From assembly GCA_003551845.1 (NCBI GenBank), contig PUNQ01000032.1, forward strand, positions 23,414-87,413: a stretch of 64,000 bases of DNA. The letters are read 5' to 3'. Both the position numbers and the translations under genes were made by a program. Under the pieces are notes generated by a model, which worked only from the letters and a program-made list of their open reading frames with translations, was not told the DNA's origin and did not search any database. Numbering within the stretch: position 1 is the stretch's first letter; the number at the start of each line of letters is the position of its first letter. This stretch comes from Candidatus Nealsonbacteria bacterium. Its GTDB lineage: Bacteria; Patescibacteriota; Minisyncoccia; Minisyncoccales; PWPS01. Shown one piece after another: positions 6,195 through 28,351 of the stretch.

Positions 6195-6269
6195 GGCCCC
6201 GTCGTCTAGCCCGGTCCAGGACGCCAGGTTCTCATCCTGGTAACAGGGGTTCAAATCCCCTCGGGGTCA
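6195..6269 (+). tRNA. tRNA-Glu (anticodon CTC).
   Basis: A 75-nt cloverleaf was folded by hand. The acceptor is GGCCCCG/CGGGGTC, the anticodon stem CCAGG/CCTGG with loop TTCTCAT, and the T-arm AGGGG-TTCAAAT-CCCCT. No CCA is encoded. Confidence 0.75.
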
Positions 6270-6281
6270 CATTACTTATGC

Positions 6282-13450: not shown

Positions 13451-14014
13451 ATGCCATTGGAAACTTTTCCCGAAATACAAGCGTTCCTGGTCTCGATTTT
13501 ACCCATAGCGGGCATCAGGGTGTCAATTCCTTTTGCAGTTACGGTGCTTGAATTGAGTTGGCAGAGCGCCTTTTTAATCTCAATAGCCGGAGGTGTCTTT
13601 GCGATGTTTATGATTTTTACTTTTTTGGAATGGGTTACCGAGTTTTTGAGAAAATACTTTAGGATTTTTGAAATTATCATTGATTATATTTTTGAAAAGA
13701 CAAGAAGAGAAAAGAAGGAAAGTGTTGAAAAATACGGATATTTCGCTTTGGCCGGATTTACCGCGGTTCCACTTCCTTTCAGTGGAGTTTGGACAGCCTC
13801 TCTGGTTGCTTATCTTTTCGGCTTGAATTACAGAAAATCGGTTTTGTCGATTTTTTTCGGAGCATTGGTTTCGGCAATTATTGTCACGGCGGTAACCGTT
13901 ACGGGAGAAACGATAACCACTAACGGAGGATTAAGACTGGTGGGACTTTTTTTCTTGATTGCAATTTTTTACTACTATCTATTTTTTAATAAAAAAGAAG
14001 AAAAACATGAATAA
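13451..14014 (+). CDS. Small polytopic membrane protein (function unknown).
   Basis: About 5 predicted TM helices; its stop overlaps the dnaX start. Confidence 0.4.
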   Translation: MPLETFPEIQAFLVSILPIAGIRVSIPFAVTVLELSWQSAFLISIAGGVFAMFMIFTFLEWVTEFLRKYFRIFEIIIDYIFEKTRREKKESVEKYGYFALAGFTAVPLPFSGVWTASLVAYLFGLNYRKSVLSIFFGALVSAIIVTAVTVTGETITTNGGLRLVGLFFLIAIFYYYLFFNKKEEKHE

Positions 14015-15125
14015 TTTGGTTTTATACAGAAAATACAGACCCAAGAAATTTTCGGACGTAATCGGTCAGGATCACGTCGTTAAAACATTGAAAAATGCGA
14101 TTGAAAATAAGAATATATCCCACGCATATCTTTTTGCCGGCCCACGTGGAACGGGAAAAACTACGATGGCTCGTCTTTTGGCGAAAGCGGTAAATTGTCT
14201 TGAGGAATCAACCGGCGCGGAGCCTTGTAATGAATGTGTGGCTTGTCAGTCGATAAATAAAGGGAACGCCGTTGATCTGGTTGAAATAGATGCCGCTTCA
14301 CATCGGGGAATAGATGAGATCAGGGAACTCAGGGAGGGGATAAAGTTTTCACCCACCAGCCTGAAGTACAAAGTATACATTATCGATGAAAGCCATCAAT
14401 TGACCAAGGGAGCGGCCAACGCTTTGCTTAAAACTTTGGAAGAGGCTCCGGATCATGCAATATTCGTATTGGCAACTACGGAACCACAGAAATTGATCCC
14501 GACCATAATATCCCGGTGTCAACGGTTTGATTTTAAAAAATTGAATTTGGAAGAGATAGTTGAAAAGTTGAAGATAATTTTAAAAAAAGAAGAGGTTAAA
14601 GCCGATCGGAGGTCTTTGGAAATAATCGCTACGGCTGCCGCCGGATCTTTTCGGGATGCGGAAAGCCTTCTGGATCAGGTTTTGACTTTCACCGGAAAGA
14701 AGATACGGGAAGAAGAGGTTAAAAATCTACTCGGTTTGGTGGAAACGGAATATGTTTCATCTTTTGTTGATTTACTCATTGAAAAAAAAGATTCGAAAGC
14801 CATAAAATTTTTGAGGAAACTTTATGAAGAGGGGGTAAATTTGGAAGAGTTTCACAATCTACTTTTGGAGTATTTGAGACATCTCCTGATTGTCGGATTG
14901 TCCGGAATCGATTTGGAAAAAGATGAAAGCTCGGTAGTGGCGAGCTTGAAGATAAGCTTTACCGGTGAGGAGATGGAAAAGATAAAAAAGCAGACGGAGA
15001 AAATAAAAACCGAAGAGACAACCGAAATGCTACGGATATTTTTAGAAGCGGGCAAGCAAATGGATCACTCTCCCATACTTCAACTTCCATTGGAGATGGC
15101 AATCGTGGAGTTTTGTATCGATTGA
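14007..15125 (+). CDS. dnaX: DNA polymerase III subunit gamma/tau.
   Basis: YRPKKFSDVIGQDH, a Walker A (GPRGTGKTT), a zinc module (CNECVACQSINKG) and an SRC motif are present. The start is at the ATG at 14007. Confidence 0.85.
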   Translation: MNNLVLYRKYRPKKFSDVIGQDHVVKTLKNAIENKNISHAYLFAGPRGTGKTTMARLLAKAVNCLEESTGAEPCNECVACQSINKGNAVDLVEIDAASHRGIDEIRELREGIKFSPTSLKYKVYIIDESHQLTKGAANALLKTLEEAPDHAIFVLATTEPQKLIPTIISRCQRFDFKKLNLEEIVEKLKIILKKEEVKADRRSLEIIATAAAGSFRDAESLLDQVLTFTGKKIREEEVKNLLGLVETEYVSSFVDLLIEKKDSKAIKFLRKLYEEGVNLEEFHNLLLEYLRHLLIVGLSGIDLEKDESSVVASLKISFTGEEMEKIKKQTEKIKTEETTEMLRIFLEAGKQMDHSPILQLPLEMAIVEFCID

Positions 15126-15136
15126 TTAGAAATATT

Positions 15137-15207
15137 TGCGGGATGGTGTAATGGTAACACGCCGGGTTCTGGTCCCGGTAATCCAGGTTCGAGTCCCGGT
15201 CCCGCAG
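15137..15207 (+). tRNA. tRNA-Gln (anticodon CTG).
   Basis: Cloverleaf with a U1-A72 acceptor (TGCGGGA/TCCCGCA), anticodon stem CCGGG/CCCGG with loop TTCTGGT, and T-loop TTCGAGT with one A.C mismatch in the T-stem. Confidence 0.7.
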
Positions 15208-15266
15208 CAAAGCTGTAAAATTAATTTCAGAATTCAACTCTTGAATAAGATAAAACAAGTTTTCAT

Positions 15267-16328
15267 ATGGCATTACCGAGTTATTCATTTTTGCTGAAAT
15301 ATTTATTATCCAAAAAAGTGAGAGCTCCGATCTACTTGATTTTTGAGCCGACTGCAAGGTGCAATTCAAATTGTTCTTTTTGCTACAACAAGGAGAAGTT
15401 AAACGAATCCGAAGAAATGAAAGCGGAGGAGATAGATCTTTTTACGAGAAAGATGGACAAATTGCTCACCCTGGCACTTAGTGGTGGAGAACCTTTTTTA
15501 AGAGAAGATCTGTCGGAAGTGGTTGAAATATTTTCAAAAAATGTGGATATGGAATACTTGATCATACCCACGAACGGATTATTACCCGATCTGATTAAGG
15601 AAAAAACTTTACGAATAATCGACAAATATGAAAAAAAATTGATAGTGACTCTTTCTCTTGACGGCTTGCATCAAAAACATGATGAAATAAGGGGGGTTGA
15701 AGGAAATTTTGAAAGACTCTTGGAAACTTATGATAACTTGTCGGCGATCGATGAGGATAATTTGGAGATATCGGTTAACACCTGCCTGAATTCGTCGAAT
15801 AAAGAAGAATTCGTTGAAATTCGTGAATTTGTAAGAAAAAGAATGCCGAAAACAAAAGCTCATAACTTTTCTTTCATGAGAGGGAGTTTTCCGGATAGCG
15901 ATTTGAAGGAAGTTGATCTCGATTTCGTAAAAAAGAATAAAGAGGAATTGCAAAAAACGGCAATTGGAAGCAGGGAGTTTTCATTTGATCCTTACGGGTC
16001 GTTTTTGAAAGCGATAAGAGCGGAATATTACTCCGTTTATGAAAATAATCAAGGTAATGAGCGAAACTGGGATTGTTATGCGGGCAACTTGGCTTGTTAC
16101 ATCGACTTTAAAGGCAATCTTTATCCCTGTGAATCACTTCCTCCAATCGGCAATTTGGAGGATTACGATTATCAATTTGAAGATTTGTGGTTTTCGGAAG
16201 TCGCCTCCGGAGTCAGGAAAGGGATAAAGGATGGAAAATGCAATTGTAATCATGGCTGCTTCGTTAAGCTCAGTTTAATGTTCAATCTCAAAATTTACCC
16301 CAAATTAATTAGGCATGTCGGAAAATAA
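15267..16328 (+). CDS. Radical SAM protein with a C-terminal SPASM/twitch-type Cys-rich domain.
   Basis: A CxxxCxxC motif (CNSNCSFC) follows a GGEP motif. The C-terminal cysteines are CYAGNLAC...C...CNCNHGC. Confidence 0.65.
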   Translation: MALPSYSFLLKYLLSKKVRAPIYLIFEPTARCNSNCSFCYNKEKLNESEEMKAEEIDLFTRKMDKLLTLALSGGEPFLREDLSEVVEIFSKNVDMEYLIIPTNGLLPDLIKEKTLRIIDKYEKKLIVTLSLDGLHQKHDEIRGVEGNFERLLETYDNLSAIDEDNLEISVNTCLNSSNKEEFVEIREFVRKRMPKTKAHNFSFMRGSFPDSDLKEVDLDFVKKNKEELQKTAIGSREFSFDPYGSFLKAIRAEYYSVYENNQGNERNWDCYAGNLACYIDFKGNLYPCESLPPIGNLEDYDYQFEDLWFSEVASGVRKGIKDGKCNCNHGCFVKLSLMFNLKIYPKLIRHVGK

Positions 16329-17307
16329 ACCGAAGGTTAAAATTGTGGTACCGCTCGTAGAAATTGATGATTATGCGATTGAGTGCATCAAAAAAATAGG
16401 TAAAATCGATTATGATAATTGGGATCTAATTTTGATTACGGATAAGCGGATAAAAGAAAGCTTTGAAAAAACCGAAATTATCGTCAGTGGTAATTTGACC
16501 ATAGGAGCAAAAAGAAATCTGGCCATTGAAAAATACAAGGAGGATGCGGACTTTTTTGCTTTTATCGATTCCGATGCATTTCCGGAAAAGTCCTGGATTA
16601 CTGAAGCTATCGGAAAGTTTATCGGTGAAGATCTTGACCCGGCAGCAGTCGGAGGACCCAATTTATTGCCTCCGGATTCCGGTTGGAGAGAAGTTTGCGC
16701 GTCCAATGCCATAAGCTCCCCGGTTATTTCCGGATTCAACTCCTTCTATTACAAAAAAGAAAAGAGCAGGCATGTCGACAAATTACCGACTTGCAATTTG
16801 ATCGTCAAAGCTTCGGTTTTTGATCAAGTGGGTCTTTTCAATGAAAGCTTGGTAACGGGTGAGGACAAAGAATTTTGTCAACGAATCGTTGAAAATCAAA
16901 AGAAAATTCTATATTCACAAGACGTAATTGTTTATCATCACAGAAGAAAGCTCTGGATGCCGTTTTTTAAGCAGAGATTCGTTTATGGATCGGGAATAGT
17001 TGAAAAGATCGGGCTCGGGTTGAATGAAGATAAGGCTCATTTAATTATTCCTCCACTCACAACTCTTTATTTTCCGGCGGGTTTTTGGATTAGCCGGGTT
17101 TCGGATACGGGAAGACTTTTTTTCATCATCACTGTTTTAGTTCTTTTAATCGTTTTTATTTTTGAAGCGGCAAGAAATTCAAAAAAAATTATTCATATTC
17201 CACCGACTTTTTTTGCAATACTCATCTCTTTTTTCATGCCCGGACTCGGCTTTTACTTTAGATTAATCGGGGGTTTTGATTTTAAAAAATTATATCGAAG
17301 ACGATAG
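16315..17307 (+). CDS. Family 2 glycosyltransferase with C-terminal TM helices.
   Basis: A GT-A fold is indicated by ILITDKR and FIDSDAF (DxD-like). The start overlaps the stop of the radical SAM gene. Confidence 0.6.
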   Translation: MSENKPKVKIVVPLVEIDDYAIECIKKIGKIDYDNWDLILITDKRIKESFEKTEIIVSGNLTIGAKRNLAIEKYKEDADFFAFIDSDAFPEKSWITEAIGKFIGEDLDPAAVGGPNLLPPDSGWREVCASNAISSPVISGFNSFYYKKEKSRHVDKLPTCNLIVKASVFDQVGLFNESLVTGEDKEFCQRIVENQKKILYSQDVIVYHHRRKLWMPFFKQRFVYGSGIVEKIGLGLNEDKAHLIIPPLTTLYFPAGFWISRVSDTGRLFFIITVLVLLIVFIFEAARNSKKIIHIPPTFFAILISFFMPGLGFYFRLIGGFDFKKLYRRR

Positions 17308-17390
17308 AGGATGCAACTTTTCTTTTTTGTCGAGAGGCAAGAAGTGGTGATTTGATTTTTAATTAATAGTAGTTATAATAATTAAGCTTT

Positions 17391-17461
17391 TGCGGGATGG
17401 TGTAATGGTAACACGCCTGGTTTTGGTCCAGGTAATCCAGGTTCGAGTCCTGGTCCCGCAG
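17391..17461 (+). tRNA. tRNA-Gln (anticodon TTG).
   Basis: Near-identical to the 15137 copy, with compensatory changes in the anticodon stem (CCTGG/CCAGG), loop TTTTGGT, and a perfect T-stem (CCAGG/CCTGG). Confidence 0.75.
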
Positions 17462-17470
17462 CATAAAAAG

Positions 17471-17499
17471 AAAAACTCCGTGAGGAGTTTTTCTTTTTA
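17471..17499 (+). terminator. Rho-independent terminator after tRNA-Gln(TTG).
   Basis: AAAAACTCC-GTGA-GGAGTTTTT is followed by a T-run. Confidence 0.55.
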
Positions 17500-17681
17500 T
17501 TGGTGGGTTGTGAGGAGAAGCGAACTACCGAATTGCGACGACCCGAGCTTTGCGAGGGGAGGACGGCAATGCCTTCGGGCAACTCATTCGAGTCCGGTAA
17601 GTTGTATTGAAAAATTTTCAGTAACAGGATTTTTATTTATATGGTTTTTCGGATATAATAAAACATCAAATCAATGGTAAT

Positions 17682-17936
17682 ATGAAAAAAAGATTCAAAG
17701 AAAAAGTGTTACAAATCGTTTCCGGAATACCGAAGGGAGGGGCTATGACTTACAAGCAGGTCGCCTCTGAAGCCGGCCGCCGGAAGGCATACAGGGCGGT
17801 CGGTAATATTTTAAAAAACAACGAAGATCAAAAGATTCCTTGCCACAGGGTAATTCGTTCCGATGAATCCATCGGCGGATACAACAAAGGAAAGGAGAAG
17901 AAAAAGGCATTACTTGAAAAAGAGGGGTTTTTATGA
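17682..17936 (+). CDS. Methylated-DNA--protein-cysteine methyltransferase DNA-binding domain protein (C-terminal domain only).
   Basis: The PCHRV active-site motif is present and the HTH is MTYKQVASEAGRRKAYRAVGN. The protein is only 84 aa. Confidence 0.7.
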   Translation: MKKRFKEKVLQIVSGIPKGGAMTYKQVASEAGRRKAYRAVGNILKNNEDQKIPCHRVIRSDESIGGYNKGKEKKKALLEKEGFL

Positions 17937-18118
17937 ATTGCCGGTTGAGATTTCTATTATAAAATTACCGAGCCGGAAGATCTTTTAATTTTTTTTGAGT
18001 ATTACACTTAATTGATTCAAATCTTGTTGATTAAAAAAATAAATTGAATAATTCGAGCTTTTATTATTTTTAAATCGTATATTTTGAAATTAATATTCAA
18101 TTTCAAAAAACCGAAGAT

Positions 18119-19315
18119 ATGAAAAAAAGACCTGAACTTATGAGTCCGATTAAAAACAGGGCCGGATTCGAAGCCTGCAAGGATTATGCCGATGCGGTTT
18201 ATTTCGGTGTGTCGGAATTTAATCTTCGATCCAACTCCAAAGGAATAGATGTAGATGAATTGAAGGACTTTATGAAGCTTTGCCATCGTAATCGGGTCAA
18301 AGGTTATTTGACGGTTAATTCGAGTCTTTACAATTATGAGTTGAGTGCAGTTGAAGATTTGATGAAAAGGGCTCAAAAGGCAAAAGTGGATGCGGTTATA
18401 GTTTGGGATCCGGCGGCGATACGAACAGCCAAAAGGCTTGGCTTAAAATTTTTCATATCCACGCAAGCCAATGTCTCAAATTGGAAAGCGGCTAAGTTTT
18501 ATGAAGATCTCGGAGCAAAGCGGGTGATATTGTCTCGAGAAATGAGTCTGGAACAGATATCCCAAGTAAAGAAAAAAACCGCACTGGAGGTAGAGGCCTT
18601 TATTCACGGAGCAATGTGTATCGCTATTTCCGGAAGATGTCTTTTGTCCGCTTTTTATGAAAATAAATCGGCGAACAAAGGCGCCTGCAATCAGCTCTGC
18701 AGGAGAAAGTGGTGGCTTACGGATGAGGAGGGAAAAAAATTGAAAATCGATGGAAAGTATTTTTTAAGCCCCAAAGACATATGTATGATCGAGTATCTAC
18801 CGGAAATGATCGATGCGGGGATAGATTCTTTTAAAATAGAAGGAAGGCAAAGGGATGCAAGATACGTAAGGGAAACGGCTAAATATTACAGAAAAGCGAT
18901 AGATGCCCATTGTGAAGGTGATTTTAATCGGAAAAAAGCGAAAAAATGGAAGAAAGAATTGAAAAAGGTTTACAATCGTAATTTTACAACCGGATTTTAT
19001 TTTGGAGAGCCGGGTGGGGAAGGAATTAATTTTGAATTCTCCGGGAGCGCGGCTACACAAAAAAAGATTCAGGTCGGAAAAGTTACCAATTTTTATTCAC
19101 GGATAAAAGTGGCATCGGTTGAGCTTTTGCACAGAGGCTTGGAAGTTGGAGACAAAATTTTAATAGAAGGGGAAACCACTTATTGTCAAGTGGAAATAAG
19201 CTCCTTACAGATAAACGGCAAAGAAGTTACAAGGGCTGAAAAAGGAGAGGAGGTCGGAATTAAATTAAGCACGAAAGCGAGAAAAAAAGACAAGGTTTTC
19301 ATACTGGTGGAGTAA
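18119..19315 (+). CDS. Peptidase U32 family protein.
   Basis: The N-terminus contains ELMSP and DAVYFGV. A Cys cluster (CNQLC) and a C-terminal beta domain match the U32 collagenase-like family. Confidence 0.7.
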   Translation: MKKRPELMSPIKNRAGFEACKDYADAVYFGVSEFNLRSNSKGIDVDELKDFMKLCHRNRVKGYLTVNSSLYNYELSAVEDLMKRAQKAKVDAVIVWDPAAIRTAKRLGLKFFISTQANVSNWKAAKFYEDLGAKRVILSREMSLEQISQVKKKTALEVEAFIHGAMCIAISGRCLLSAFYENKSANKGACNQLCRRKWWLTDEEGKKLKIDGKYFLSPKDICMIEYLPEMIDAGIDSFKIEGRQRDARYVRETAKYYRKAIDAHCEGDFNRKKAKKWKKELKKVYNRNFTTGFYFGEPGGEGINFEFSGSAATQKKIQVGKVTNFYSRIKVASVELLHRGLEVGDKILIEGETTYCQVEISSLQINGKEVTRAEKGEEVGIKLSTKARKKDKVFILVE

Positions 19316-19349
19316 TTGTTTTTTTATAAAAATTTGCTATACTCAAACA

Positions 19350-20129
19350 ATGGACGAAAAAAGGAAAAAGTCAGCTTTGATATTGTTATTGGTAGTTGTT
19401 TTCATCGTCGGAGCCGTATTTTTTTATGAAGAGGATCGGACTGAAGACGAGGAAACGGAAGAAACGGATGAAGTCAGTATAACGGGAAATCTGGCTTGCA
19501 GAGAAGATGATGATGAGCGTCGGTGGTACTTGCGTCAAAAAGAAGGTGATGATGATTCAATGACAAGATTGGTGATCGGCGAAGATATCTGTAAAAAAGA
19601 TAATCAGGAATGCCTTTATTTTCTGGAAAAAGAGTGTCGGTTATCCGGGAACAAAATAGAGGTTGTCGGAAAAAGAGAGGATGGATTTTTAAAAATTTCG
19701 GATATCGATTTTCTTGACGATTTCGATTGTAGTTTTGAATTCTCCGATTTTTCAACTCAAGAAGAATATGAGATTGAAAATGTTTTTGTTAATTTTGAAA
19801 CTCGTCCGGAAGCGGAAGAATTTCGAACTCGAATAAAGGAAACGGCGGAAGAGGGCCCGAACTTTGCAGGTAAATTTTCATATGCGGAATGGGGGTGCGG
19901 CACTTATTGTGGAGCCGGCTCGATAACGGATTTGACCACCGGAGAGATAGTTGAGTTCGGTTTAATAAATTCCCACGGTGTAAACTTCGAAAAGGGTAGC
20001 CGTTTGTTAATTATAGATCCCCCCGAAAAATTGGACTACATACAAGAGGGAGATCTTTTGGAAAACATAAAGAGCGAATATTATCTAATAAATGAGAAGG
20101 GTGAACTTTTTCTTCTTTGTCGTCATTAA
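19350..20129 (+). CDS. Hypothetical Cys-rich exported or membrane-anchored protein.
   Basis: An N-terminal TM helix and about 10 Cys; overlaps the downstream histidine kinase by 13 nt. Confidence 0.35.
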   Translation: MDEKRKKSALILLLVVVFIVGAVFFYEEDRTEDEETEETDEVSITGNLACREDDDERRWYLRQKEGDDDSMTRLVIGEDICKKDNQECLYFLEKECRLSGNKIEVVGKREDGFLKISDIDFLDDFDCSFEFSDFSTQEEYEIENVFVNFETRPEAEEFRTRIKETAEEGPNFAGKFSYAEWGCGTYCGAGSITDLTTGEIVEFGLINSHGVNFEKGSRLLIIDPPEKLDYIQEGDLLENIKSEYYLINEKGELFLLCRH

Positions 20130-21108: not shown

Positions 21109-22314
21109 ATGGAGAATATTAAAGTTTTAATGTTCGGTTGGGAGCTGCCACCTGAAAACAGCGGTGGGCTGGGGGTCGCCTGTTTGGGACTATCCAAAAA
21201 ACTGAACCAAAAAGGAGTTGATATTACATTCGTGGTTCCGCGAAAAACCGAAGCAATGAAGAATAATTTTTTCAATTTGCTTTCCGCGGATATAAATTAT
21301 AAGGAGATTGAAGTAAAATCATCTCTTTCTCCCTATCTTTCGCCTCAAAAATATAAAAGTATTCTCAGAGAAGAAAAAGATATATACGGAAAAACTCTTT
21401 TTGAGGAAGTTTCCAGGTATAGAAAATGTGCTCGAAAAATAGCGCTTTTTGAAAATTTCGACGTTATTCATGCCCATGATTGGCTCTCCTTCGGTGCGGG
21501 AGTGGAGGCCAAGAAGATAACCGGAAAGCCGTTGATAGCGCATGTCCATGCCACCGAATTCGATCGTGGGGGAGGGACTGGCGTGGATGAACGGGTCTAT
21601 CGGCGTGAAAAAGAAGGTTTGGAGATGGCGGATAAGATAATTGCGGTCAGTAATTACACCAAAAACATAATCGTTGAAAAATACGGAATTCCGGAAACCA
21701 AGGTAGAAGTTGCTTATAACGGAGTAGATTTAAAAGAAAAGCCGGCCGGAAAAAAGATTTTGGAAGCATTTCAGGAAGCGGGCTACAAGATTGTTCTCTT
21801 TGTCGGCAGATTAACCATACAGAAGGGCCCCGATTATTTTTTGCAAGCGGCTCGAAAAGTTTTGGATCACAGTGATGATGTTATATTCGTGGTCGCGGGA
21901 TCCGGTGATATGGAAGAGCAGATTATAAGACAGGCCTCGGAACTCGGAATTTCCGACAAAGTTTTATTTCCGGGATTCATAAGAGGAAAAGATCTTCACA
22001 GCTTATATAAATCGGCCGATTTATTTATAATGCCCTCGGTTTCCGAACCCTTCGGCCTTACGCCCTTGGAGTCTCTGATAAATGGAACACCGGTTCTGGT
22101 TTCCAAACAATCGGGAGTTTCCGAAGTGTTGACACACGCTTTGAAAGTTGATTTTTGGGATGTTGAAGAGATGGCCAATAAGATATTATCCACTTTGAAT
22201 CATGATTGCTTGAAGACGTGTCTTTCGGAAAACGGAAAAAAAGAAGTCGGTGGCATAACTTGGGATTTTGCCGCTGACAAATGCATTTCAGTTTACAAAT
22301 CATTAATGAAATAA
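21109..22314 (+). CDS. Family 4 glycosyltransferase (alpha-glucan/glycogen synthase-like).
   Basis: A GT-B fold is indicated by EPFGLTPLESLINGTPVL (an EX7E-like region), preceded by an AGGAGG ribosome-binding site. Confidence 0.6.
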   Translation: MENIKVLMFGWELPPENSGGLGVACLGLSKKLNQKGVDITFVVPRKTEAMKNNFFNLLSADINYKEIEVKSSLSPYLSPQKYKSILREEKDIYGKTLFEEVSRYRKCARKIALFENFDVIHAHDWLSFGAGVEAKKITGKPLIAHVHATEFDRGGGTGVDERVYRREKEGLEMADKIIAVSNYTKNIIVEKYGIPETKVEVAYNGVDLKEKPAGKKILEAFQEAGYKIVLFVGRLTIQKGPDYFLQAARKVLDHSDDVIFVVAGSGDMEEQIIRQASELGISDKVLFPGFIRGKDLHSLYKSADLFIMPSVSEPFGLTPLESLINGTPVLVSKQSGVSEVLTHALKVDFWDVEEMANKILSTLNHDCLKTCLSENGKKEVGGITWDFAADKCISVYKSLMK

Positions 22315-22318
22315 AAAA

Positions 22319-23530
22319 ATGCCTTCGGTTTGTTTCTATTTTCAAGTTCATCAACCCTTCAGAGTGAAAAAATACAGATATTTCGATATAGGAAAGGATC
22401 ATGACTACTTCAATGAAAAAGGAGACAATGATTTGAACAATGAAAAAATCATGAAGAAGGTGGCTCGGAAATCATATTTACCCACCAATCAAGTTTTATT
22501 GGATCTTTTAGAAGAAGAACCCGAATTCAAGATAAGCTTTTCTTTCTCCGGAGTGGCTCTGGAGCAGATGGAAAAGTATGCTCCGGAAGTGATAGACTCT
22601 TTTCAAAAGCTGGTGGATACCGGAAGAGTGGAGATTTTAGCCGAAACCTATTATCATTCATTGGCGTTTCTTTATTCCAAAGAAGAGTTCAGAAAACAGG
22701 TTGAACTTCATGAGAAAAAAATAAATGAAATTTTTGACTATCAGCCCAAAATTTTTCGGGGAACGGAACTTTCTTACAGCAATGATCTGGCCGAAGAGGT
22801 TGAAGATATGGGTTATGAAGGAATTTTAACCGAAGGAGTAGACAGGATTTTGGGTTGGCGTAGCCCCAATTTCTTGTATTCTCCAAAGGGCTCCGATATA
22901 GCGCTTTTTTTAAAAAACTATAAGCTTTCGGACGATATAGCGTTTCGATTTTCAAGCAAGGGATGGAAGGAGCATCCTCTTACGGCTCCAAAGTTTGCTC
23001 GGTGGGTGTCCGCAATAAACGGCAACGGAGAAGTTGTTAATCTTTTCATGGATTATGAAACTTTCGGAGAACATCAATGGGAATCGACCGGTATATTCAA
23101 TTTTTTAAGATCCTTGCCGTCTGAAATTCTAAAGCATCCGGACAATAATTTTTTAACTCTGAGAGAAGCTGTCGAAAGGTATGATCGAGTTGCCGAGTTG
23201 GATATTCCTTACTTTATTTCTTGGGCTGACAGCGAACGGGATTTATCCGCTTGGATCGGTAACCCGATGCAAAGAGATATGTTGAATAAATTGTATGATC
23301 TCGAGGAAGATGTTTTGCGAACGGGAGATGAAAAGCTTATCGATAAGTGGAGAAAATTACAAACTTCGGATCATTTTTATTATATTTGCACAAAGACTCT
23401 TTCTGACGGGACGGTTCATAATTATTTCAGTCCGTACGAGTCTCCGTATGAGGCGTTTATATCTTATGCAAATGCGTTGAATGATTTTAGATTGGAAATT
23501 AAAAATAAAGCAAAAAAGGCCGAAGCATAA
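22319..23530 (+). CDS. Glycoside hydrolase family 57 protein.
   Basis: The N-terminus FYFQVHQPFR carries the GH57 signature HQP, with a TIM-like catalytic region. Confidence 0.65.
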   Translation: MPSVCFYFQVHQPFRVKKYRYFDIGKDHDYFNEKGDNDLNNEKIMKKVARKSYLPTNQVLLDLLEEEPEFKISFSFSGVALEQMEKYAPEVIDSFQKLVDTGRVEILAETYYHSLAFLYSKEEFRKQVELHEKKINEIFDYQPKIFRGTELSYSNDLAEEVEDMGYEGILTEGVDRILGWRSPNFLYSPKGSDIALFLKNYKLSDDIAFRFSSKGWKEHPLTAPKFARWVSAINGNGEVVNLFMDYETFGEHQWESTGIFNFLRSLPSEILKHPDNNFLTLREAVERYDRVAELDIPYFISWADSERDLSAWIGNPMQRDMLNKLYDLEEDVLRTGDEKLIDKWRKLQTSDHFYYICTKTLSDGTVHNYFSPYESPYEAFISYANALNDFRLEIKNKAKKAEA

Positions 23531-23535
23531 AATAA

Positions 23536-25356
23536 GTGCTCGGATCAAAAAAAATGGAAAAGGAAAAAGTTAAAGCGGATTATCTCTTCGAGGTTTCTTA
23601 TGAAATCTGCAATAAGGTGGGTGGGATATACAGAGTTTTGGAATCCAAGGCAGACAATATGATTGAGAGATACGGAATCGATAATTACTTTTTGATAGGC
23701 CCTTATTATTTGGAAAGCTCAAAAGGGGAGTTTAAAAAAGAAACTCCGAACGGGAAGTTAAGACAGGCTTTTGATGAGTTGGAAAAAGATGTAATTCATT
23801 GCCATTATGGAAAATGGATGGTCAAGGGAAGACCTAAAACGATTTTGGTTGATTTCAGGGATTTTTTTGCCCAAAAGAATAACATCAAAAAGAATTTGTG
23901 GGAAAACTACGGAATCGATTCTTTGAATGCGGGAATTACCTTTGAAGAGCCGGTTGTCTGGTCTTGGGCGGTCGGAAAGGTGATTGAAAAAGTGGGAGAA
24001 ACAATTTCCGATGACAAGGAAAAGATGGTTGCTCATTTTCATGAGTGGCTTTCGGGAGCGGGATTGCTTTACTTAAATCAAAGTGAGCTTGACATAGGAA
24101 CGGTTTTTACCACCCATGCTACGAGCTTGGGGAGGTCGTTGGCATATAACAATATCGATTTTTACAATCAGTTTGAAGGAATAAATTCTTCGGAAGCGGC
24201 TTATGAAAACGGTGTTCACCCCAAACATCAGATGGAAAAAAGAGTCGCCCTGAATGCGGACGTATTTACCACGGTCAGTGAAATAACCGCCCTGGAAGCG
24301 GAAAAGTTTTTAGATCGCCGACCGGATATTATTTTACCCAACGGATTGGATTTGGAAAAATTTTTAACTTTTGAAGAAATTGTAATTAAGCACAGATTGC
24401 AAAGAAGGAGGTTGAGAGAATTCGTAATATCCTTCTTTTTTCCTTATTATCGATTCGATATCGAAGACACTCTTTTCTATTTCATAATCGGTCGTAATGA
24501 ATACAAAGCTAAAGGCGTCGATATATTTATAAAGTCTTTGGCCGAATTGAATCGAAGAATGAAAGAAAACGGCACTGAAAAAACGATAGTAGCCTTTTTC
24601 TGGATTCCGACCGAAGTTCGATCCGTAAAAAGTGAGATGGTGGAAAACAGAGAATTATTCCAAGATATTAAAGATTCTTTATCCGAAGCGATGCCGGAAA
24701 TTGAAGAGAAGATTCTTTACAATTTACTTTATGAAGACGACCTTGCAACTGAAAAGATAATAAGTGAAAATTATCTTTTTGAAATTGAAAGAAAATTGTT
24801 ATCCTTAAACAAGGAAAGCGAAAACCCGCCCATTTCCACACACGAATTAATGGATCAAGATGATAAAATTTTGAAAACGATCAGGGATTATGGGCTAAAT
24901 AATAAAAAAGAGGACAGAGTAAAGGTAATTTACTATCCGATCTATTTGACCGGCCATGACGGACTTTCCAACCTTGACTACCAAGAAGCCTTGGAGGCTT
25001 GTCATCTGGGTGTTTTCCCCAGCTTTTATGAGCCTTGGGGGTATACTCCTTTGGAAGCGGCGGCTCTGGGAGTCGCCTCGGTTACCACCGATTTGGCAGG
25101 ATTCGGCAGATTCAGGCAAGATATGGAAAAGAAAGATGGAAAAGAGGGGGTATACGTATTGGAAAGATATAAGCGGAAAGATGAAAAAATAGTTTCCGAT
25201 TTGTCGGAACTGATGTATAATTTTTCCAAATTCAATAGAAAAGAAAGGGTCGATAACAAGATTGAAGCGAGAAAGATAGCCGCAAAGGCGGATTGGAAAG
25301 ATTTCGTCAACCATTACGTGAAGGCTCAAAACGAATCAATTCAAAATGAAAGTTAA
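23536..25356 (+). CDS. Glycogen (starch) synthase, GT3 eukaryotic-type family.
   Basis: The N-terminus LFEVSYEICNKVGGIYRVLESKA matches the GT3 glycogen synthase signature (FEvaWEVaNKVGGIYTVl). The true start may be at 23554. Confidence 0.6.
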   Translation: MLGSKKMEKEKVKADYLFEVSYEICNKVGGIYRVLESKADNMIERYGIDNYFLIGPYYLESSKGEFKKETPNGKLRQAFDELEKDVIHCHYGKWMVKGRPKTILVDFRDFFAQKNNIKKNLWENYGIDSLNAGITFEEPVVWSWAVGKVIEKVGETISDDKEKMVAHFHEWLSGAGLLYLNQSELDIGTVFTTHATSLGRSLAYNNIDFYNQFEGINSSEAAYENGVHPKHQMEKRVALNADVFTTVSEITALEAEKFLDRRPDIILPNGLDLEKFLTFEEIVIKHRLQRRRLREFVISFFFPYYRFDIEDTLFYFIIGRNEYKAKGVDIFIKSLAELNRRMKENGTEKTIVAFFWIPTEVRSVKSEMVENRELFQDIKDSLSEAMPEIEEKILYNLLYEDDLATEKIISENYLFEIERKLLSLNKESENPPISTHELMDQDDKILKTIRDYGLNNKKEDRVKVIYYPIYLTGHDGLSNLDYQEALEACHLGVFPSFYEPWGYTPLEAAALGVASVTTDLAGFGRFRQDMEKKDGKEGVYVLERYKRKDEKIVSDLSELMYNFSKFNRKERVDNKIEARKIAAKADWKDFVNHYVKAQNESIQNES

Positions 25357-27043
25357 ACATATATTAAAAAACAATCAATGGGTGAAAGAAGTGGATGAGA
25401 GAACCTCCTTTCTTTTGGGAAATAAAATCGGTGATTATCTTTGGCTTTCCGATAATCCGGAGAGCAGATATCAGGGGTGGTTCGTAACACCGCCGAATCA
25501 GAATGGGGGTGAGATATACAAAGTTATCGAGGATATACGTCCGGTGGGAAGAAATAGAATTGAAACGGTGGAAAATTATTTTTCAAAAGTCAGAAGAAAA
25601 GGTGATGGATTCGAAGAGACTTTCATCGTTTCCGAAAATGAACACAAAATGAGGTATCAGCTGAAAGAGGATTCGGAAGTTGAATTGATTTTGGACATGC
25701 GACACTCTTACAGCAATGCTTATCCGGAATACATAATAGAGTGGATTGACGACAAGCTGCTGATAAAAACCGGGGGAGAAGACGATTTCTTTTTAGCGAT
25801 CAAGGGGTTCGAATCGGTTGATTTAATCAGAGAGCGGTTCGTGCGACATTATTCGATTGATAAAAAGAGAAACTCTCCTCCTTTTGAAAAAGCTGTTTTT
25901 AAAGCTTTAAGTATGAGAGGTAAAGACTTCTTTTTTTCCGCATCCGAAAACAGGGAAGAGGCTTTAAATCAATTGGACACAAAAACAGAAGCAAATTTAC
26001 CCGAAGAAGAAAAAGAGCCGGTTGATTTTGTGGCGGCAAAAAAAGGATTGTCCGATTTGTCGGTTAACGGCAGGGGGATATATGCGGGATATCCTTGGTT
26101 TTTCCAATTTTGGAAGAGAGATGAAGCAATTTCTCTGAGAGGGCTTAGAATAATCGATCCGGAAAAAGCGGAAAAATTATTTTGGTCTCTTTTGGAAGAA
26201 GACAAAAGTTGCCCTGCGGGAAAGGCGTTTGACGGAGTAGGCTGGACTTTCAAGAGAGCATTTCTTTTTCTGAATGATTTTAATCAAGAAGAAGAAAAAG
26301 CCTTGGCTGATTTTCTGCGAAAGGAAGTTGATTTTGAGAAATCCGACGAATTAACCGTTAACGGCAATAAAGAAACATGGATGGACTCAATTCCGAGAGA
26401 AGGGGCCAGGATAGAAATTCAGGCCTTAAAGCTGAATATGTATAAATTGGGTAGGCTGATCGATCCGGAAAAGCAGGATAAATATCAATCGATGGAGTCC
26501 GAATTAAAGAAAAAAGTAAGAAGCATTTTTTGGGACGGCAATATTTTGGCGGACGGTTATTTTCCGAAAAAAGGAGTGGTGGACAAAACCGTCAGGCCCA
26601 ATATCTTTTTAGCTTATTATATATATCCGGATCTTTTGAGTGAAAAAGAATGGGTGACTTGCTTCAGAAGAGCTCTTTATGAATTATGGCTCGATTGGGG
26701 TGGATTGGCAAGCATCAGCAAAGAGAGCCCTCGCTTCAACAGTCGGCATACCGGAGAGAATCCTCAAAGCTATCATCAAGGAGACAGCTGGTTTTTTGTG
26801 AATAATTTAGCCGCAATATCAATGAACAGGTTGGATGATGGAAAATTTTCATATGAGATTAAAAAAATACTTGAAGCGAGTCGAGAAAATTTAATGTGGA
26901 AAGGAGCTGTGGGCCATCATAGTGAGATAAGCTCGGCCGAAATACTGAAATCGGAAGGTGCGGTCAGTCAGGCTTGGAGCTTCGCAACCTATTTGGAAGC
27001 ACTTTATGAAATATTTAAAATAAATAATTTCAGCTGGAGTTAA
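25346..27043 (+). CDS. Amylo-alpha-1,6-glucosidase (glycogen debranching enzyme C-terminal domain, GH133-like).
   Basis: GYPWFFQFWKRDEAISLRG corresponds to the GDE catalytic region GlPWF..WGRD. It shares a glucan cluster with GT3, GH57 and GT4. Confidence 0.6.
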   Translation: MKVKHILKNNQWVKEVDERTSFLLGNKIGDYLWLSDNPESRYQGWFVTPPNQNGGEIYKVIEDIRPVGRNRIETVENYFSKVRRKGDGFEETFIVSENEHKMRYQLKEDSEVELILDMRHSYSNAYPEYIIEWIDDKLLIKTGGEDDFFLAIKGFESVDLIRERFVRHYSIDKKRNSPPFEKAVFKALSMRGKDFFFSASENREEALNQLDTKTEANLPEEEKEPVDFVAAKKGLSDLSVNGRGIYAGYPWFFQFWKRDEAISLRGLRIIDPEKAEKLFWSLLEEDKSCPAGKAFDGVGWTFKRAFLFLNDFNQEEEKALADFLRKEVDFEKSDELTVNGNKETWMDSIPREGARIEIQALKLNMYKLGRLIDPEKQDKYQSMESELKKKVRSIFWDGNILADGYFPKKGVVDKTVRPNIFLAYYIYPDLLSEKEWVTCFRRALYELWLDWGGLASISKESPRFNSRHTGENPQSYHQGDSWFFVNNLAAISMNRLDDGKFSYEIKKILEASRENLMWKGAVGHHSEISSAEILKSEGAVSQAWSFATYLEALYEIFKINNFSWS

Positions 27044-28293
27044 AGAGTTTCTACAATTCTTTTAATGCCGGACATAAGGGAAGAATCATATTCTTCTCGT
27101 TTTATTTTTTGAGCAGCGTACAAGGCGTTAAGGGGTTTGGTTTCTTTTTTCTGGTATTTTTGAGGATAATTTTCTTCCAGGCAGCCGTTCAATACGAATA
27201 TTTTTTCGGATTTTAAAAGTTCTTTTTTCTTTTTTTTGCTCGCCTCTTTGTTTTTAAACTTTTTATTCCAATAACGATCAATTCCGTCTTCATCAATCAT
27301 TACTATATAGGGCATATTGAATATTTTACAAATCTCTTCATAAAGATCGATATTGCCGATTCCTCCGCAATAAACCACTTTTATGTCCGTAGTTTTGTTA
27401 TGAAATCTGTCAATTAGACCTCTGAGCAAGATACTGTCGGAGACACCCTCTACGAGAACCACCTTGTCGGCAAAAAGCATTGCCGAATTATCATCGTTTA
27501 TCTCTTGAACCAAGCGATCTTTTGGAATCGAGCGACCCTTCTGAAAACTACAAACGGAAGTGCTGTTATTTTTATTTCTGGATACTCGCCAAACCTTATC
27601 CAAGAGTTTGGCCTGGACAAAAGTGGGGTGATGGGTGGTAAGAAAGATTTGGTTTTCCGGATTTCTATTTTGCAATATTTTTAAAAATTTTTTTATCACC
27701 GAAGGATGAAGATGTAATTCCGGTTCGTCTATAAGGATTATCTCGTAGTCGGGATTGTAAATATAAAAAAGAATCACAAAAAGCCTTTTGAAGCCGTCTC
27801 CCATTCTGTTTAGCGCTTTTTCTTTTTCGGAGCTCATTTCCGCCTCGAAGAGCTTTTCATCGATCTGAATGTTCTGAAAATATTTTTTTATGGTTTTAAC
27901 AAAATCCCGATATGCTTCATTATGCTCTCGCTTGAAGAGGTCTAAATTTTCAGCTAAGATTTTTTTTAAAGCGGGAGAGTGACTGATTCGTATTACTTTC
28001 TCTTTCATCTTTTCATATTTTTTTTTGGAAAATTGATAGTCGAGGGTCTTGCCGGAATAGTGGAGGCTACACTTTTCGGATTCATGAGTCAGGTTCAATC
28101 TGAGATTAAATTCACCCTCGCTCCTTTTTAATTTTTCATTATCGGGATTGAAAAATATTTCAATCGAATCCAGTAAATTGGTTTTTCCGGCGTTGTTGGG
28201 ACCGACCAAAATATGGAGATCGGAAAAATTATCCATTTCAATCGACTCAATAACGCTTTTATAATTTTTAATCTGAATTTTTTTTATTTTCAT
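27040..28293 (-). CDS. OLD-family ATP-dependent endonuclease (N-terminal ABC-type ATPase fused to a C-terminal Toprim), class 1 standalone.
   Basis: A Walker A (GPNNAGKTNL) and DEPELHLHP (Walker B plus the LHP signature of the AAA_15/OLD family) sit in the N-terminal half. The C-terminal Toprim reads VLVEGVSDSILL...IDEDG. The start is set at MKIKKIQIKNYKSV (ATG at 28293). Confidence 0.7.
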   Translation of the reverse strand: MKIKKIQIKNYKSVIESIEMDNFSDLHILVGPNNAGKTNLLDSIEIFFNPDNEKLKRSEGEFNLRLNLTHESEKCSLHYSGKTLDYQFSKKKYEKMKEKVIRISHSPALKKILAENLDLFKREHNEAYRDFVKTIKKYFQNIQIDEKLFEAEMSSEKEKALNRMGDGFKRLFVILFYIYNPDYEIILIDEPELHLHPSVIKKFLKILQNRNPENQIFLTTHHPTFVQAKLLDKVWRVSRNKNNSTSVCSFQKGRSIPKDRLVQEINDDNSAMLFADKVVLVEGVSDSILLRGLIDRFHNKTTDIKVVYCGGIGNIDLYEEICKIFNMPYIVMIDEDGIDRYWNKKFKNKEASKKKKKELLKSEKIFVLNGCLEENYPQKYQKKETKPLNALYAAQKIKREEYDSSLMSGIKRIVETL

Positions 28294-28300
28294 TTGATCA

Positions 28301-28351
28301 TTATAGCATTTGGAATGATTATTTGACAAAATTTTTTTTTAAACTTATAAT
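28301..28351. promoter_or_regulatory. Back-to-back divergent promoters sharing a -35 region.
   Basis: On the plus strand, TTGACA (28323-28328), a 17-nt spacer and TATAAT (28346-28351) precede the 28385 gene. On the minus strand, TTGTCA (the complement of 28324-28329), a 17-nt spacer and TATAAT (the complement of 28301-28306) sit only ~8 nt from the OLD start codon, which hints at a leaderless mRNA. Confidence 0.45.

Follow-up and report, generated by a model that had tools for sequence, protein, structure and literature searches.

Two near-identical tRNA-Gln genes in the window (the whole 64,000-nt stretch of DNA that was analysed) enclose a gene for a radical SAM enzyme and a gene for a GT2 glycosyltransferase, hereafter called the cassette. 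How did this arrangement arise? The original prediction had read it as an islet created by integration at a tRNA gene or by tandem tRNA duplication. Here, the locus was compared with about ten related metagenomic loci, which are referred to by L numbers.

A variable interval between dnaX and a U32 peptidase gene

The cassette and both tRNA genes lie between two conserved anchors (Table 1), dnaX, which is syntenic in L002, L007, L090, L094 and L100, and a U32 peptidase-family gene, which is syntenic in L091, L094, L099 and L100. At least six distinct architectures occupy the dnaX-to-U32 interval among the related loci, which is evidently a hypervariable locus centred on tRNA-Gln. A gene encoding a stand-alone MGMT/Ogt C-terminal domain protein is present at the locus in the window species only and absent from L091, L094, L099 and L100, and is therefore part of the variable content. 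In agreement with the prediction that the two cassette genes are the sole genes between the tRNAs, just two credible ORFs were identified there.

Table 1. Positions of the annotated features in the window.
Feature	Position	Strand	Evidence
dnaX (clamp-loader gamma/tau), conserved left anchor of variable interval	14007..15125	+	Pfam DNA_pol3_delta2 1.5e-48
tRNA-Gln(CUG)	15137..15208	+	ARAGORN (ctg); Rfam RF00005 60.0 bits
Radical SAM enzyme, C-terminal SPASM/twitch-like auxiliary-cluster domain, 353 aa, cargo gene 1	15267..16328	+	Pfam, NCBIfam
GT2 glycosyltransferase, 330 aa, DSD motif, two C-terminal hydrophobic helices, cargo gene 2	16315..17307	+	PF13641, PF00535
Sigma-70-like promoter TTGATT-16-TATAAT of tRNA-Gln(UUG)	17352..17379	+	Best promoter-like match in 14900-18200, 10/12 positions
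tRNA-Gln(UUG)	17391..17462	+	ARAGORN (ttg); Rfam RF00005 66.4 bits
Symmetric hairpin with U-runs on both strands, AAAAAGAAAAACTCC-GTGA-GGAGTTTTTCTTTTT	17464..17499	.	Sequence, hairpin alignments
GC-rich segment between terminator and partial tRNA	17500..17586	+	58% GC; matches no known RNA family
Truncated tRNA-Gln 3'-end copy TTCGAGTCC-GGT, att-type direct repeat	17587..17598	+	Alignment with L001, L091
Stand-alone 84-aa MGMT/Ogt C-terminal domain protein, PCHRV motif	17682..17936	+	Pfam DNA_binding_1 8.9e-28
U32 peptidase-family gene, conserved right anchor of variable interval	18119..19315	+	Pfam 4e-84

Contigs encoding identical radical SAM proteins fall into two types. Type W (L002, L090 and L092) has the arrangement of the window, whereas type L (L001, L003 and L004, three independent assemblies) is 99.9% identical to it over positions 15136-17598 only and differs in its left flank, which contains a gene X on the minus strand and a promoter. 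The right flank of type L completes the tRNA 3' end (...TTCGAGTCCGGT/CCCGCAGCAtcttcc). The left breakpoint is located at 15136/15137, BLAST homology with L001, L003 and L004 beginning at 15136, and the right breakpoint relative to these sister strains at 17598/17599.

Two relatives contain empty sites with a single tRNA-Gln(UUG) and neither the cassette nor the GC-rich segment. In L094, dnaX is followed by a homolog of X (63% identical), a promoter, the tRNA gene, a different terminator and the U32 gene, and in L100 by a promoter, the tRNA gene with its own terminator, other genes and the U32 gene. In the window, tRNA-Gln(CUG) starts 11 nt past the dnaX stop, i.e. at the resident position, and the stop codon TGA sits within a TTGATT hexamer (15122-15127); the same overlap recurs in L100, where the hexamer serves the tRNA promoter as its -35 element. 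Since X, promoter and tRNA adjoin in L094 and L001 and dnaX, TTGATT and tRNA in L100 and the window, the left tRNA would mark the resident site and, although now reading CUG, evidently occupies the position of the single tRNA-Gln of the relatives.

That the window retains a vertically inherited tandem pair of tRNA-Gln isoacceptors bracketing housekeeping genes, with no insertion history, is hardly credible. The cassette does match the genome in codon usage and in GC content (37.6%, compared with 38.4% for window and genome), and dnaX and the cassette are syntenic in L007 and L008. However, a tandem tRNA arrangement is found in no relative, and tandem tRNAs around housekeeping genes, named beforehand as an observation that would speak against an islet, did not turn up among the related loci. 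The reading is also at odds with the number of architectures in the same interval, and the empty sites of L094 and L100, together with the partial tRNA repeats described below, contradict it.

Two tRNA-Gln genes and a partial tRNA copy

Both tRNA-Gln genes passed the tRNA check that had been proposed, which was run with ARAGORN and Rfam (Table 1), and score above the RF00005 gathering score of 29. They form the core of a 75-nt repeat (15135-15209 and 17389-17463; 95% identical, 2254 nt start to start) and differ at four positions, comprising a T>C change in the anticodon, a compensatory T-A>G-C exchange in the anticodon stem and a T>C change in the T stem. The latter yields the predicted A.C mismatch in the CTG copy, where RF00005 marks one non-standard pair. 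A U1-A72 pair is readable in the tRNA-Gln sequence, and CAG accounts for 29% of the Gln codons. Both tRNAs look functional, as predicted, and probably act as isoacceptors.

No promoter-like site was found upstream of tRNA-Gln(CUG) in the window strain when positions 14900-18200 were scanned. Hexamers equivalent to those of the tRNA-Gln(UUG) promoter precede tRNA-Gln in L001, L091, L094 and L100. The window tRNA-Gln(UUG) is 97% identical to the L091 copy, from which it is one compensatory pair apart. Furthermore, both window tRNAs have in common a C-G pair that is missing in L091, L094 and L100; as a shared derived feature, this pair is in line with local duplication or gene conversion in the recent past. 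The promoter-plus-tRNA units of L001 (108 nt) are 89% identical to each other.

The hairpin directly downstream of tRNA-Gln(UUG) is read as its putative intrinsic terminator and is 95% common to L091, whereas L094, L100 and L099 carry different, native terminators. It is followed by the GC-rich segment noted in the original prediction, which proved to be real, contains GCC-UUCG-GGC and TTCGAGTCC, and alone deviates in composition (58% GC at 17500-17599, compared with 21-48% in adjoining windows and 38% overall). When aligned with L091, the 5' 25 nt of this segment are 74% identical and the 3' part (76 aligned positions) is 96% identical, which equals the tRNA (97%) and is far above the promoter spacer (68%) and the neighbouring intergenic DNA (43%). 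Promoter, tRNA, terminator and GC-rich segment together are 89% identical between the two loci, in contrast to U32 proteins with just 60% identity and adjoining intergenic DNA that cannot be aligned. This tRNA-side module evidently behaves as a unit.

The segment ends in a partial copy of the tRNA. In the window, TTCGAGTCC (17587-17595) followed by GGT aligns, allowing for a gap of 1 nt, with 12 nt from the 3' part of the tRNA; the 9-mer itself occurs five times in the window compared with 0.55 expected, two of these occurrences being unrelated coding matches. In L001, representing the sister strains, and in L091 the segment ends with 21 nt, TTCGAGTCC-GGTCCCGCAGC(A), of which the window retains only the 12 nt, and in L099 the copy matches the tRNA 3' end exactly over 23 nt and precedes a native-looking terminator. 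L001 contains three tRNA 3'-end copies, the partial one exactly matching the last 14 nt of the CUG gene. These longer copies bear out the suggestion of an att-like partial tRNA copy, and the repeat evidently is of the kind that would be left by a circular element recombining into the T-loop/3' part of a tRNA.

Alternatively, the segment, alone or together with the tRNA 3' fragment, could be a functional element, either a structured or tRNA-like RNA or the end of a miniature element. The strong conservation of its 3' part in lineages with divergent U32 proteins and its high GC content within an AT-rich genome argue for this reading. In addition, an AUUGC/GCAAU stem is kept in L099, with a GAA triloop in place of 29 nt, the sole indel that separates window and L091 within the well-conserved 3' part lies in a predicted hairpin loop, and according to the U32 tree the window, L099 and L091 have the segment, which the L094/L100 clade lacks. 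However, Rfam 15 returned nothing relevant for the segments of the window, L091 and L099 even at E<=10, fold z-scores ranged from -0.4 to -2.3 and were mostly non-significant, and the RNAalifold consensus (-3.35 kcal/mol) showed no covariation. The segment sits behind a terminator with no promoter of its own, the window copy lacks its last 9 nt, a half copy exists in L091, and the overlying ORF is not frame-conserved. The structured RNA put forward earlier as an alternative is therefore not supported; the missing covariation and Rfam match, which had been named as grounds for abandoning the idea, tell against the RNA reading only. Overall, we consider it improbable that the roughly 75-nt conserved core of the segment and the tRNA-Gln 3' fragment are a functional module rather than a scar. 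Such a module may be a small structured RNA with a tRNA-like 3' end, or it may be the conserved recombination end of a miniature element that lacks an integrase, targets tRNA-Gln, is mobilised in trans and spreads among co-occurring Paceibacteria, and the two variants share this low probability between them. If the latter were true, the element would carry tRNA-Gln(UUG) and a variable cargo, the radical SAM-GT2 pair or a DUF483 protein depending on the lineage.

The radical SAM and GT2 cassette

The first cassette gene encodes a radical SAM protein (PF04055, 2.8e-18) with the core motif CxxxCxxC (C32, C36, C39), which is invariant in 84 homologs. A C-terminus of the SPASM type with seven cysteines had been predicted; only five of them (C270, C288, C325, C327 and C331) are conserved in these homologs, the first four being invariant and C331 at least 90% conserved, whereas C277 is unconserved and the motif reads CxCx3C instead of Cx2Cx5Cx3C. 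The AF2 model of the protein (pLDDT 93) has SkfB, SuiB, BlsE and anSME as Foldseek neighbours. With the solved SPASM/twitch enzymes (SkfB, SuiB, anSME, BlsE, DesII and BtrN) it shares the CxxxCxxC core and a Cys-rich C-terminal auxiliary domain (Foldseek probability 1.0, TM 0.5-0.65) at 13-21% sequence identity and with five conserved C-terminal cysteines of its own. No single SPASM/twitch family is clearly closest, so the substrate class is not readable from the structure neighbours.

The GT2 protein contains a DSD sequence as DxD motif (residues 85-87) and, according to its hydropathy, two C-terminal hydrophobic segments (residues 261-289 and 292-318), in line with the predicted transmembrane helices. 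It scores marginally with PF13641 (27.6, cutoff 27), and its homologs in L005 and L028 score far higher on GT2 models. The HMM comparison proposed for the cassette gave further marginal matches for both proteins, PF13186 (SPASM) at 22.1 bits compared with a cutoff of 21.5 and PF00535 at 24.2 compared with 23.3. The two genes overlap by 14 nt, which agrees with the proposed translational coupling of the enzymes. In the wider radical SAM family, 53 of 80 loci have a GT2 as conserved partner and 21 of 80 an HpnJ/BchE-like B12 radical SAM enzyme.

The pairing resembles that of mycofactocin MftC (radical SAM/SPASM) with MftF (GT2), and also hopanoid HpnI (GT2) with HpnJ (B12 radical SAM), an HpnJ-like B12 radical SAM enzyme often adjoining distant homologs. 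Unlike these systems, the cassette scores far under the cutoffs and the other pathway genes are absent. To our knowledge, Patescibacteria are not known to make mycofactocin or hopanoid products. It is very improbable that the pair is a RiPP cluster for a glycosylated or cross-linked peptide, or a mycofactocin-like one. The best HMM and structure neighbours of the radical SAM protein do include the peptide maturases WgkB, PapB, SkfB, SuiB and CteB, and MftF is the best NCBIfam match of the GT2 protein. However, every NCBIfam score is far under its family cutoff (80.5 bits for GT2 against MftF, cutoff 280; 51.6 for the radical SAM protein against MftC, cutoff 265), and the sugar-modifying enzymes BlsE, DesII and BtrN are structurally just as close. 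Furthermore, MftA/B/D/E genes are missing, no RiPP recognition domain was noted, and the wider family has enzymes, not small peptides, as its conserved partners. The peptide-maturase reading also failed the proposed small-ORF check. No ORF of at least 20 aa fits 15208-15266, ORFs over 17308-17610 (including 17308-17390) are not frame-conserved in relatives, and no precursor peptide candidate was found in the window. A mycofactocin system as such was discarded, with MftC and MftF scores below cutoff and no mftA/B/D/E or other mft genes. The two enzymes may instead act on a membrane-associated glycan or glycolipid.

A more distant copy of the cassette (rSAM' and GT2', 50-53% identical) follows dnaX within 5-9 nt in L007 and L008, with no tRNA in between; the CysS of these loci is 82% and their DnaX 73-74% identical to those of the window. 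L100 is the closest relative of L007, with 81% identical DnaX, yet it lacks the cassette. Furthermore, an unrelated genome contains a copy (49% and 41% identical) as a block of 35% GC within DNA of 44-48% GC. Together with the empty sites, this distribution shows that the cassette is accessory and evidently horizontally exchangeable.

Proposed history of the islet and likeness to known mobile elements

Genomic islands and integrative elements such as P4-like islands and many ICEs and IMEs enter tRNA 3' ends via a tyrosine integrase (PMC5704250). Like such islands, the locus has an intact tRNA on one side and a partial 3' copy as direct repeat on the other, accessory cargo, presence/absence variation with empty sites in relatives and, in L099, a displaced native terminator. 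Unlike them, it comprises an interval of only 2.4 kb with native cargo composition, another complete tRNA-Gln served by a promoter of its own and, in the window, a right repeat shortened to 12 nt. Integrase, excisionase or mobility genes were not detected with Pfam, NCBIfam or PHROGs among all ORFs of 13451-20129 and 10 further window ORFs, nor were integrase or mobility genes seen in related loci, including L091, L099 and L100. IMG/VR, INPHARED phages and PLSDB plasmids yielded nothing resembling a matching attP; the few short exact hits fall by chance in unrelated coding DNA. No junction contig indicating excision as a circular form occurred among the contigs found by exact-protein look-up.

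CIMEs are cis-mobilizable, att-flanked remnants of integrative elements that lack recombination genes (PMC5704250, PMC7563491). In L001, the tRNA 3' end and the partial copy similarly flank integrase-free DNA, either the 130-nt terminator-plus-GC unit or a 2.4-kb stretch in type L. Unlike for CIMEs, no cognate integrase-bearing element was found in the collections searched and the host belongs to the Patescibacteria; the likeness is one of sequence. Dehalococcoides ssrA islands, which come with repeated copies of the 3' end of this gene, are reported to be horizontally acquired, integrated at the single-copy ssrA and site-specifically mobilised (PMC3146451). The parallels to that account are the reuse of the 3' end of a small-RNA gene as integration site, a reduced genome and accessory cargo, whereas the window keeps just a scar and a small cassette.

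Taken together, we hold, with about even confidence, that the dnaX-U32 interval is a recombination-prone locus around a resident tRNA-Gln and that the window contains an integrase-less islet that is no longer mobile. To the right of tRNA-Gln(CUG) follow the cassette, the complete tRNA-Gln(UUG) with promoter and terminator, the GC-rich segment and the partial tRNA 3' copy. At least one site-specific integration would have taken place at tRNA-Gln, in which a circular element recombined into the T-loop/3' part of the gene and displaced its original 3' end. We lean slightly towards the view that cassette, second tRNA and GC-rich segment entered as one island, bounded by the 3' end of tRNA-Gln(CUG) and the partial copy, with later loss of the integrase. 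In the window strain, a left deletion would then have taken out gene X together with the tRNA promoter and stopped precisely at the 5' end of the tRNA, and a right deletion would have shortened the partial tRNA by its last 9 nt. The islet, whose cargo is a pair of uncharacterised enzymes, would be a case of ordinary plasticity of the genome at a tRNA gene. It is unusual for an island to contain a whole second tRNA-Gln immediately within its right end, and this counts against the preferred history, as do the missing mobility genes and attP, the native GC content of the cassette and the derived C-G pair shared by both tRNAs.

As the cassette of L007 and L008 has no upstream tRNA, a single tRNA-targeted integration of the pair is only one of two live histories, and its position directly after dnaX means that the single-island model requires extra deletions. 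In the other history, which we regard as unlikely though worth serious consideration, the cassette is an old resident of the dnaX operon and tRNA-Gln(CUG) a recent local duplicate; a duplicated promoter and tRNA-Gln(UUG) unit would have landed upstream of the pair before its anticodon shifted, and the scar would be confined to the terminator and GC-rich segment, 130 nt in all, that separate tRNA-Gln(UUG) from the partial tRNA. The dnaX-cassette adjacency in L007 and L008, which are fairly close relatives, supports this account, as do the GC-rich segment and partial tRNA of L091 and L099 with no cassette visible on the short contig stretch upstream, the derived C-G pair, the similarity of the L001 promoter-plus-tRNA units and the native cassette composition. 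However, it needs more independent events, leaves the exact resident position of the left tRNA beside X or dnaX unaccounted for, and is difficult to reconcile with the absence of the cassette from L100 and its clear transfer between phyla. Of the predicted tRNA-targeted islet, the accessory cassette and the att-like repeat stand, whereas the absence of an integrase, the tRNA-free cassette of L007 and L008 and the segment without visible cassette in L091 and L099 do not fit.

In tRNA gene remolding, a tRNA gene is duplicated and the anticodon of a copy shifts between isoacceptors. The two window copies, which differ by the anticodon and a compensatory stem pair at 95% identity, resemble this process, and only UUG genes were seen at this locus in the relatives; unlike in remolding, they are separated by cargo genes rather than adjacent. 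Because no terminator separates dnaX, tRNA-Gln(CUG) and the two cassette genes, the latter three would be transcribed by read-through from the dnaX operon.

The tRNA-Gln genes and the cassette between them

Three tRNA genes were identified in the window by ARAGORN, two of which are tRNA-Gln genes with CTG and TTG anticodons (see table). Both genes are bona fide, scoring 60.0 bits (CTG copy) and 66.4 bits (TTG copy) against the Rfam tRNA model (gathering score 29), which marked a single T-stem pair of the CTG copy as non-standard. They lie within a direct repeat of 95% identity, and the four differences noted in the original prediction were recovered: the altered anticodon, a compensatory pair in a stem and the substitution behind an A.C mismatch. 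In 55 long ORFs, CAG accounts for 29% of the Gln codons, so a tRNA with a CUG anticodon would plausibly be of use. The locus suggests how a second Gln isoacceptor may arise in a reduced genome, with a spare tRNA-Gln at an insertion site taking on the CUG anticodon. A tRNA-Glu(CUC) gene is present both in the window and in L094, a 152-kb contig of a relative.

As proposed, the tRNA pair encloses two real genes, which overlap by 14 nt and encode a 353-aa radical SAM protein (PF04055, 2.8e-18) and a 330-aa GT2 glycosyltransferase with a DSD motif and two C-terminal hydrophobic helices. The predicted SPASM-type C-terminus with seven cysteines was retained in part: the SPASM match is marginal (22.1 bits vs a cutoff of 21.5), and conservation across 84 homologs (C32/36/39, C270, C288, C325 and C327 invariant, C331 conserved in at least 90%) reduces the number of conserved C-terminal cysteines to five. 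Function could not be assigned from PDB searches, which returned SkfB (3e-12) by sequence and only generic SPASM/twitch enzymes with peptide and sugar substrates (TM 0.5-0.65) as Foldseek neighbours of the confident AF2 model (pLDDT 93) of the radical SAM protein, and no sequence match for the GT2 protein. No precursor-sized ORF is present in the spacers flanking the cassette genes, so the suggested role in peptide maturation found no support. Based on the GT2 architecture and enzyme-only neighbourhoods, the substrate might be a membrane-associated glycan or glycolipid. The window also encodes a second, unrelated radical SAM protein of 454 aa.

Coordinates of features in the window and in compared loci
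Feature	Locus	Position (strand)
tRNA-Glu(CUC)	window	6195-6270
tRNA-Glu(CUC)	L094	19068-19143
dnaX	window	14007-15125
TTGATT hexamer	window	15122-15127
TTGATT hexamer	L100	2255-2260
Direct repeat, left and right copies	window	15135-15209 / 17389-17463
tRNA-Gln(ctg)	window	15137-15208
Radical SAM gene of cassette	window	15267-16328
GT2 gene	window	16315-17307
GT2 gene with shortened product	L001	2491-3441
tRNA-Gln(ttg)	window	17391-17462
36-aa ORF	window	17500-17610
84-aa Ogt-like gene	window	17682-17936
U32 peptidase gene	window	18119-19315
Glycogen-type cluster	window	21109-27043
OLD-family gene	window	27040-28329 (-)
Second radical SAM gene	window	40080-41444 (-)
Gene X	L001	1-1215 (-)
X homologs	L094	6570-8201, 10001-11548
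81-nt duplication	L091	948-1028 / 1132-1212
Low-GC block	L005	9050-12650

Strain types and architectures of the dnaX-U32 interval

The exact radical SAM protein is present on contigs of two strain types. Type W (L002, L090, L092) is collinear with the window, and type L (L001, L003, L004) is 99.92% identical to it, with the similarity confined to 15136-17598 and exact breakpoints at 15136/15137 and 17598/17599. Type L is not an assembly artefact, as its three independent assemblies agree at 99.9-100%. In one of them (L001), a 1-nt indel leaves a GT2 product of 316 aa, compared with the full 330 aa in L003 and L004.

On the left flank of type L, a minus-strand gene (X) is followed by a TTGATT...TATAGT promoter and the tRNA(CUG) gene. 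The X product is secreted, contains Asp-rich TSP3-like repeats and matches no Pfam family. Its homologs form only two clusters among 5.8 billion proteins, and the two in L094 both flank the exporter-dnaX pair, so this family is lineage-specific and variably present at the locus. On the right flank, the GC-rich segment continues ...TTCGAGTCCGGT|CCCGCAGCAtcttcc, which copies the 3' end of tRNA-Gln over 21 nt with one nucleotide deleted; the window departs from it after GGT. As this flank completes the partial copy, L001 carries three copies of the tRNA 3' end, and the partial copy matches the 3' end of the CUG gene exactly over 14 nt. The att-like partial tRNA that had been suspected was supported in outline, with the repeated 3'-end motif written TTCGAGTCC(N)GGTCCCGCAGCA. 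Further occurrences of TTCGAGTCC at window positions 48627 and 63432 are chance matches within coding DNA.

More distant relatives differ in the content of this interval. L094 (DnaX 68-69% and U32 60% identical to the window), whose arrangement recurs in two other sources, contains a minus-strand X homolog (63% identical to X), a promoter, tRNA-Gln(UUG) and a different terminator. L100 (DnaX 74-75%, U32 65%) contains a promoter, tRNA-Gln(UUG), its own terminator, a flavoprotein gene, ychF and a 151-aa ORF. Both are empty sites, lacking the cassette, the CUG tRNA and the GC-rich segment. In L007 (CysS 82%, DnaX 73-74%) and L008/L009, the cassette (radical SAM 50-53%, GT2 43-55%) begins 5-9 nt after dnaX with no intervening tRNA, and the contigs end at the end of the GT2 gene. 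L091 (U32 60%) contains a DUF483 gene, a promoter, tRNA-Gln(UUG), the same terminator as the window, the GC-rich segment and a full partial tRNA, followed by 'tcttc', an 81-nt repeat of half of the terminator/segment unit and a 151-aa ORF. The two copies of this direct duplication (99% identity, 184 nt apart) span the 3' half of the terminator and the 5' half of the segment. In L099 (U32 70%), the sister of the window in the U32 tree, a shorter sequence related to the segment (TGCGCTACCCGATTGCGA-AGCAAT...) is followed by an exact 23-nt tRNA 3' end and a terminator hairpin; the 326 nt that remain before the contig ends contain no full tRNA. Pairwise identity among the window, L091 and L094 U32 proteins is ~60% throughout, and U32 homologs are labelled Patescibacteria, Paceibacterota or Minisyncoccales by their sources.

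With empty sites and att-type scars counted, at least six architectures occur at this one locus. Loci of this kind are known, and the present one adds an example from a lineage with few described; it does not overturn current understanding. To our knowledge, tRNA-gene integration and strain-level islet turnover have seldom been described in Patescibacteria. In both the window and L100, the stop codon of dnaX falls within a TTGATT hexamer. This hexamer serves as the -35 element of the tRNA-Gln promoter in L100, and the window may keep a promoter remnant from which ~26 nt were deleted.

The GC-rich segment and the inferred insertion history

The segment stands out at 58% GC (17500-17599) from the whole window (38%). 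Between the window and L091, its 3' 76 aligned positions are 96% identical, close to tRNA-Gln(UUG) (97%) and the terminator hairpin (95%), compared with 68% for the promoter spacer and 43% for the intergenic DNA before U32. The segment core is thus conserved at the level of a tRNA. The proposed structured RNA was not supported: neither the window, L091 nor L099 version matched Rfam (tRNA model included, at E<=10), fold z-scores were mostly non-significant, RNAalifold found neither a consensus structure nor covariation, and the segment has no promoter of its own. A third tRNA, an intron-bearing tRNA or a tmRNA was likewise rejected, as ARAGORN with intron, tmRNA and lowered-score options returned nothing. 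The 36-aa ORF is in another frame in L091 and indels are not multiples of three, which argues against a small protein gene. A minus-strand anti-SD-like sRNA was dismissed on a weak ar14 match (19 bits vs a gathering score of 58.8) with no conserved promoter. Homology of L099 1-35 to the 5' part of the segment is not significant, its score being reached by 20 of 2000 shuffles and 7 of 377 windows.

The att-type partial tRNA repeats and the empty sites in relatives are directly observed, and we infer at least one site-specific integration into tRNA-Gln. The terminator after tRNA(UUG) is common only to loci with the segment; those of L094, L100 and L099 are unrelated to it, and that of L099 lies 3' of the partial tRNA. 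This pattern is the one expected from integration into the 3' end of a tRNA gene, where the rebuilt tRNA acquires a terminator from the element and the native one is carried away along with the partial copy. The 2.4 kb as a whole, from the cassette through tRNA-UUG and the terminator to the segment, could represent one decayed island to the right of a resident tRNA. This would explain why the left tRNA occupies the resident position, why the partial copy matches the 3' end of the CUG gene exactly over 14 nt, and why L091 has the module in common despite its different cargo. Alternatively, the cassette may be an older resident and the CUG gene a local duplicate, with only 130 nt being the scar; these two separate histories better fit L007/L008 and the derived stem pair common to both window tRNAs, although a single island is more economical for type L.

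No integrase was found at the locus, and an integrase-driven mechanism for the cassette is not supported. A corresponding attP, or the segment itself, was sought by five exact scans of IMG/VR and by blastn against phages (INPHARED) and plasmids (PLSDB), which returned nothing or chance matches in unrelated high-GC coding DNA.

Distribution of the cassette and neighbouring genes

L007 and L100 are mutually closest among the loci compared here (DnaX 81%), and only L007 carries the cassette. The cassette is accessory, as the empty sites in L094 and L100 also demonstrate, which agrees in outline with the predicted islet, and it is exchangeable. Furthermore, L005, a metabolically unrelated genome with AFOR and UbiD neighbours, contains a 3.6-kb block of 35% GC within DNA of 44-48% GC, which encodes a 199-aa ORF, radical SAM (49% identical) and GT2 (41%) proteins and a 108-aa ORF and indicates horizontal transfer of the cassette. 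No accompanying tRNA and no flanking or att-like repeats were found with it.

Among 80 species-representative genomes (L010-L089) with radical SAM homologs of 29-38% identity, an MftF/EpsD-like GT2 gene adjoins the radical SAM gene in 53 and an HpnJ/BchE-like B12 radical SAM gene is present in 21 loci, indicating a widespread, uncharacterised pair. It occurs in Acidobacteriota, Nitrospirota, Thermoanaerobaculia, Omnitrophota, Woesearchaeota and others, and with a distribution across many bacterial and archaeal phyla its chemistry is worth testing.

The islet is preceded by dnaB, cysS, a small exporter gene and dnaX, and followed by the Ogt-like gene, the U32 peptidase gene and the glycogen cluster. 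The Ogt-like product is a stand-alone MGMT/Ogt C-terminal domain in which the active-site motif PCHRV is retained. Its gene is restricted at this locus to the window species, and in L092 tblastn covers only its first 68 residues (93%). Look-ups of P0001 and of this 84-aa protein gave no match. The best NCBIfam match of the U32 protein is the tRNA U34 hydroxylase TrhP (220 bits vs a cutoff of 534), and its gene directly adjoins tRNA-Gln(UUG) in several relatives, which is probably a coincidence. An OLD-family ATPase/TOPRIM nuclease gene occupies the same position in L099 and L100, and the glycogen-type cluster, encoding GT4/GT5, GH57, glycogen synthase and GDE_C proteins, is syntenic in L094, L099 and L100.
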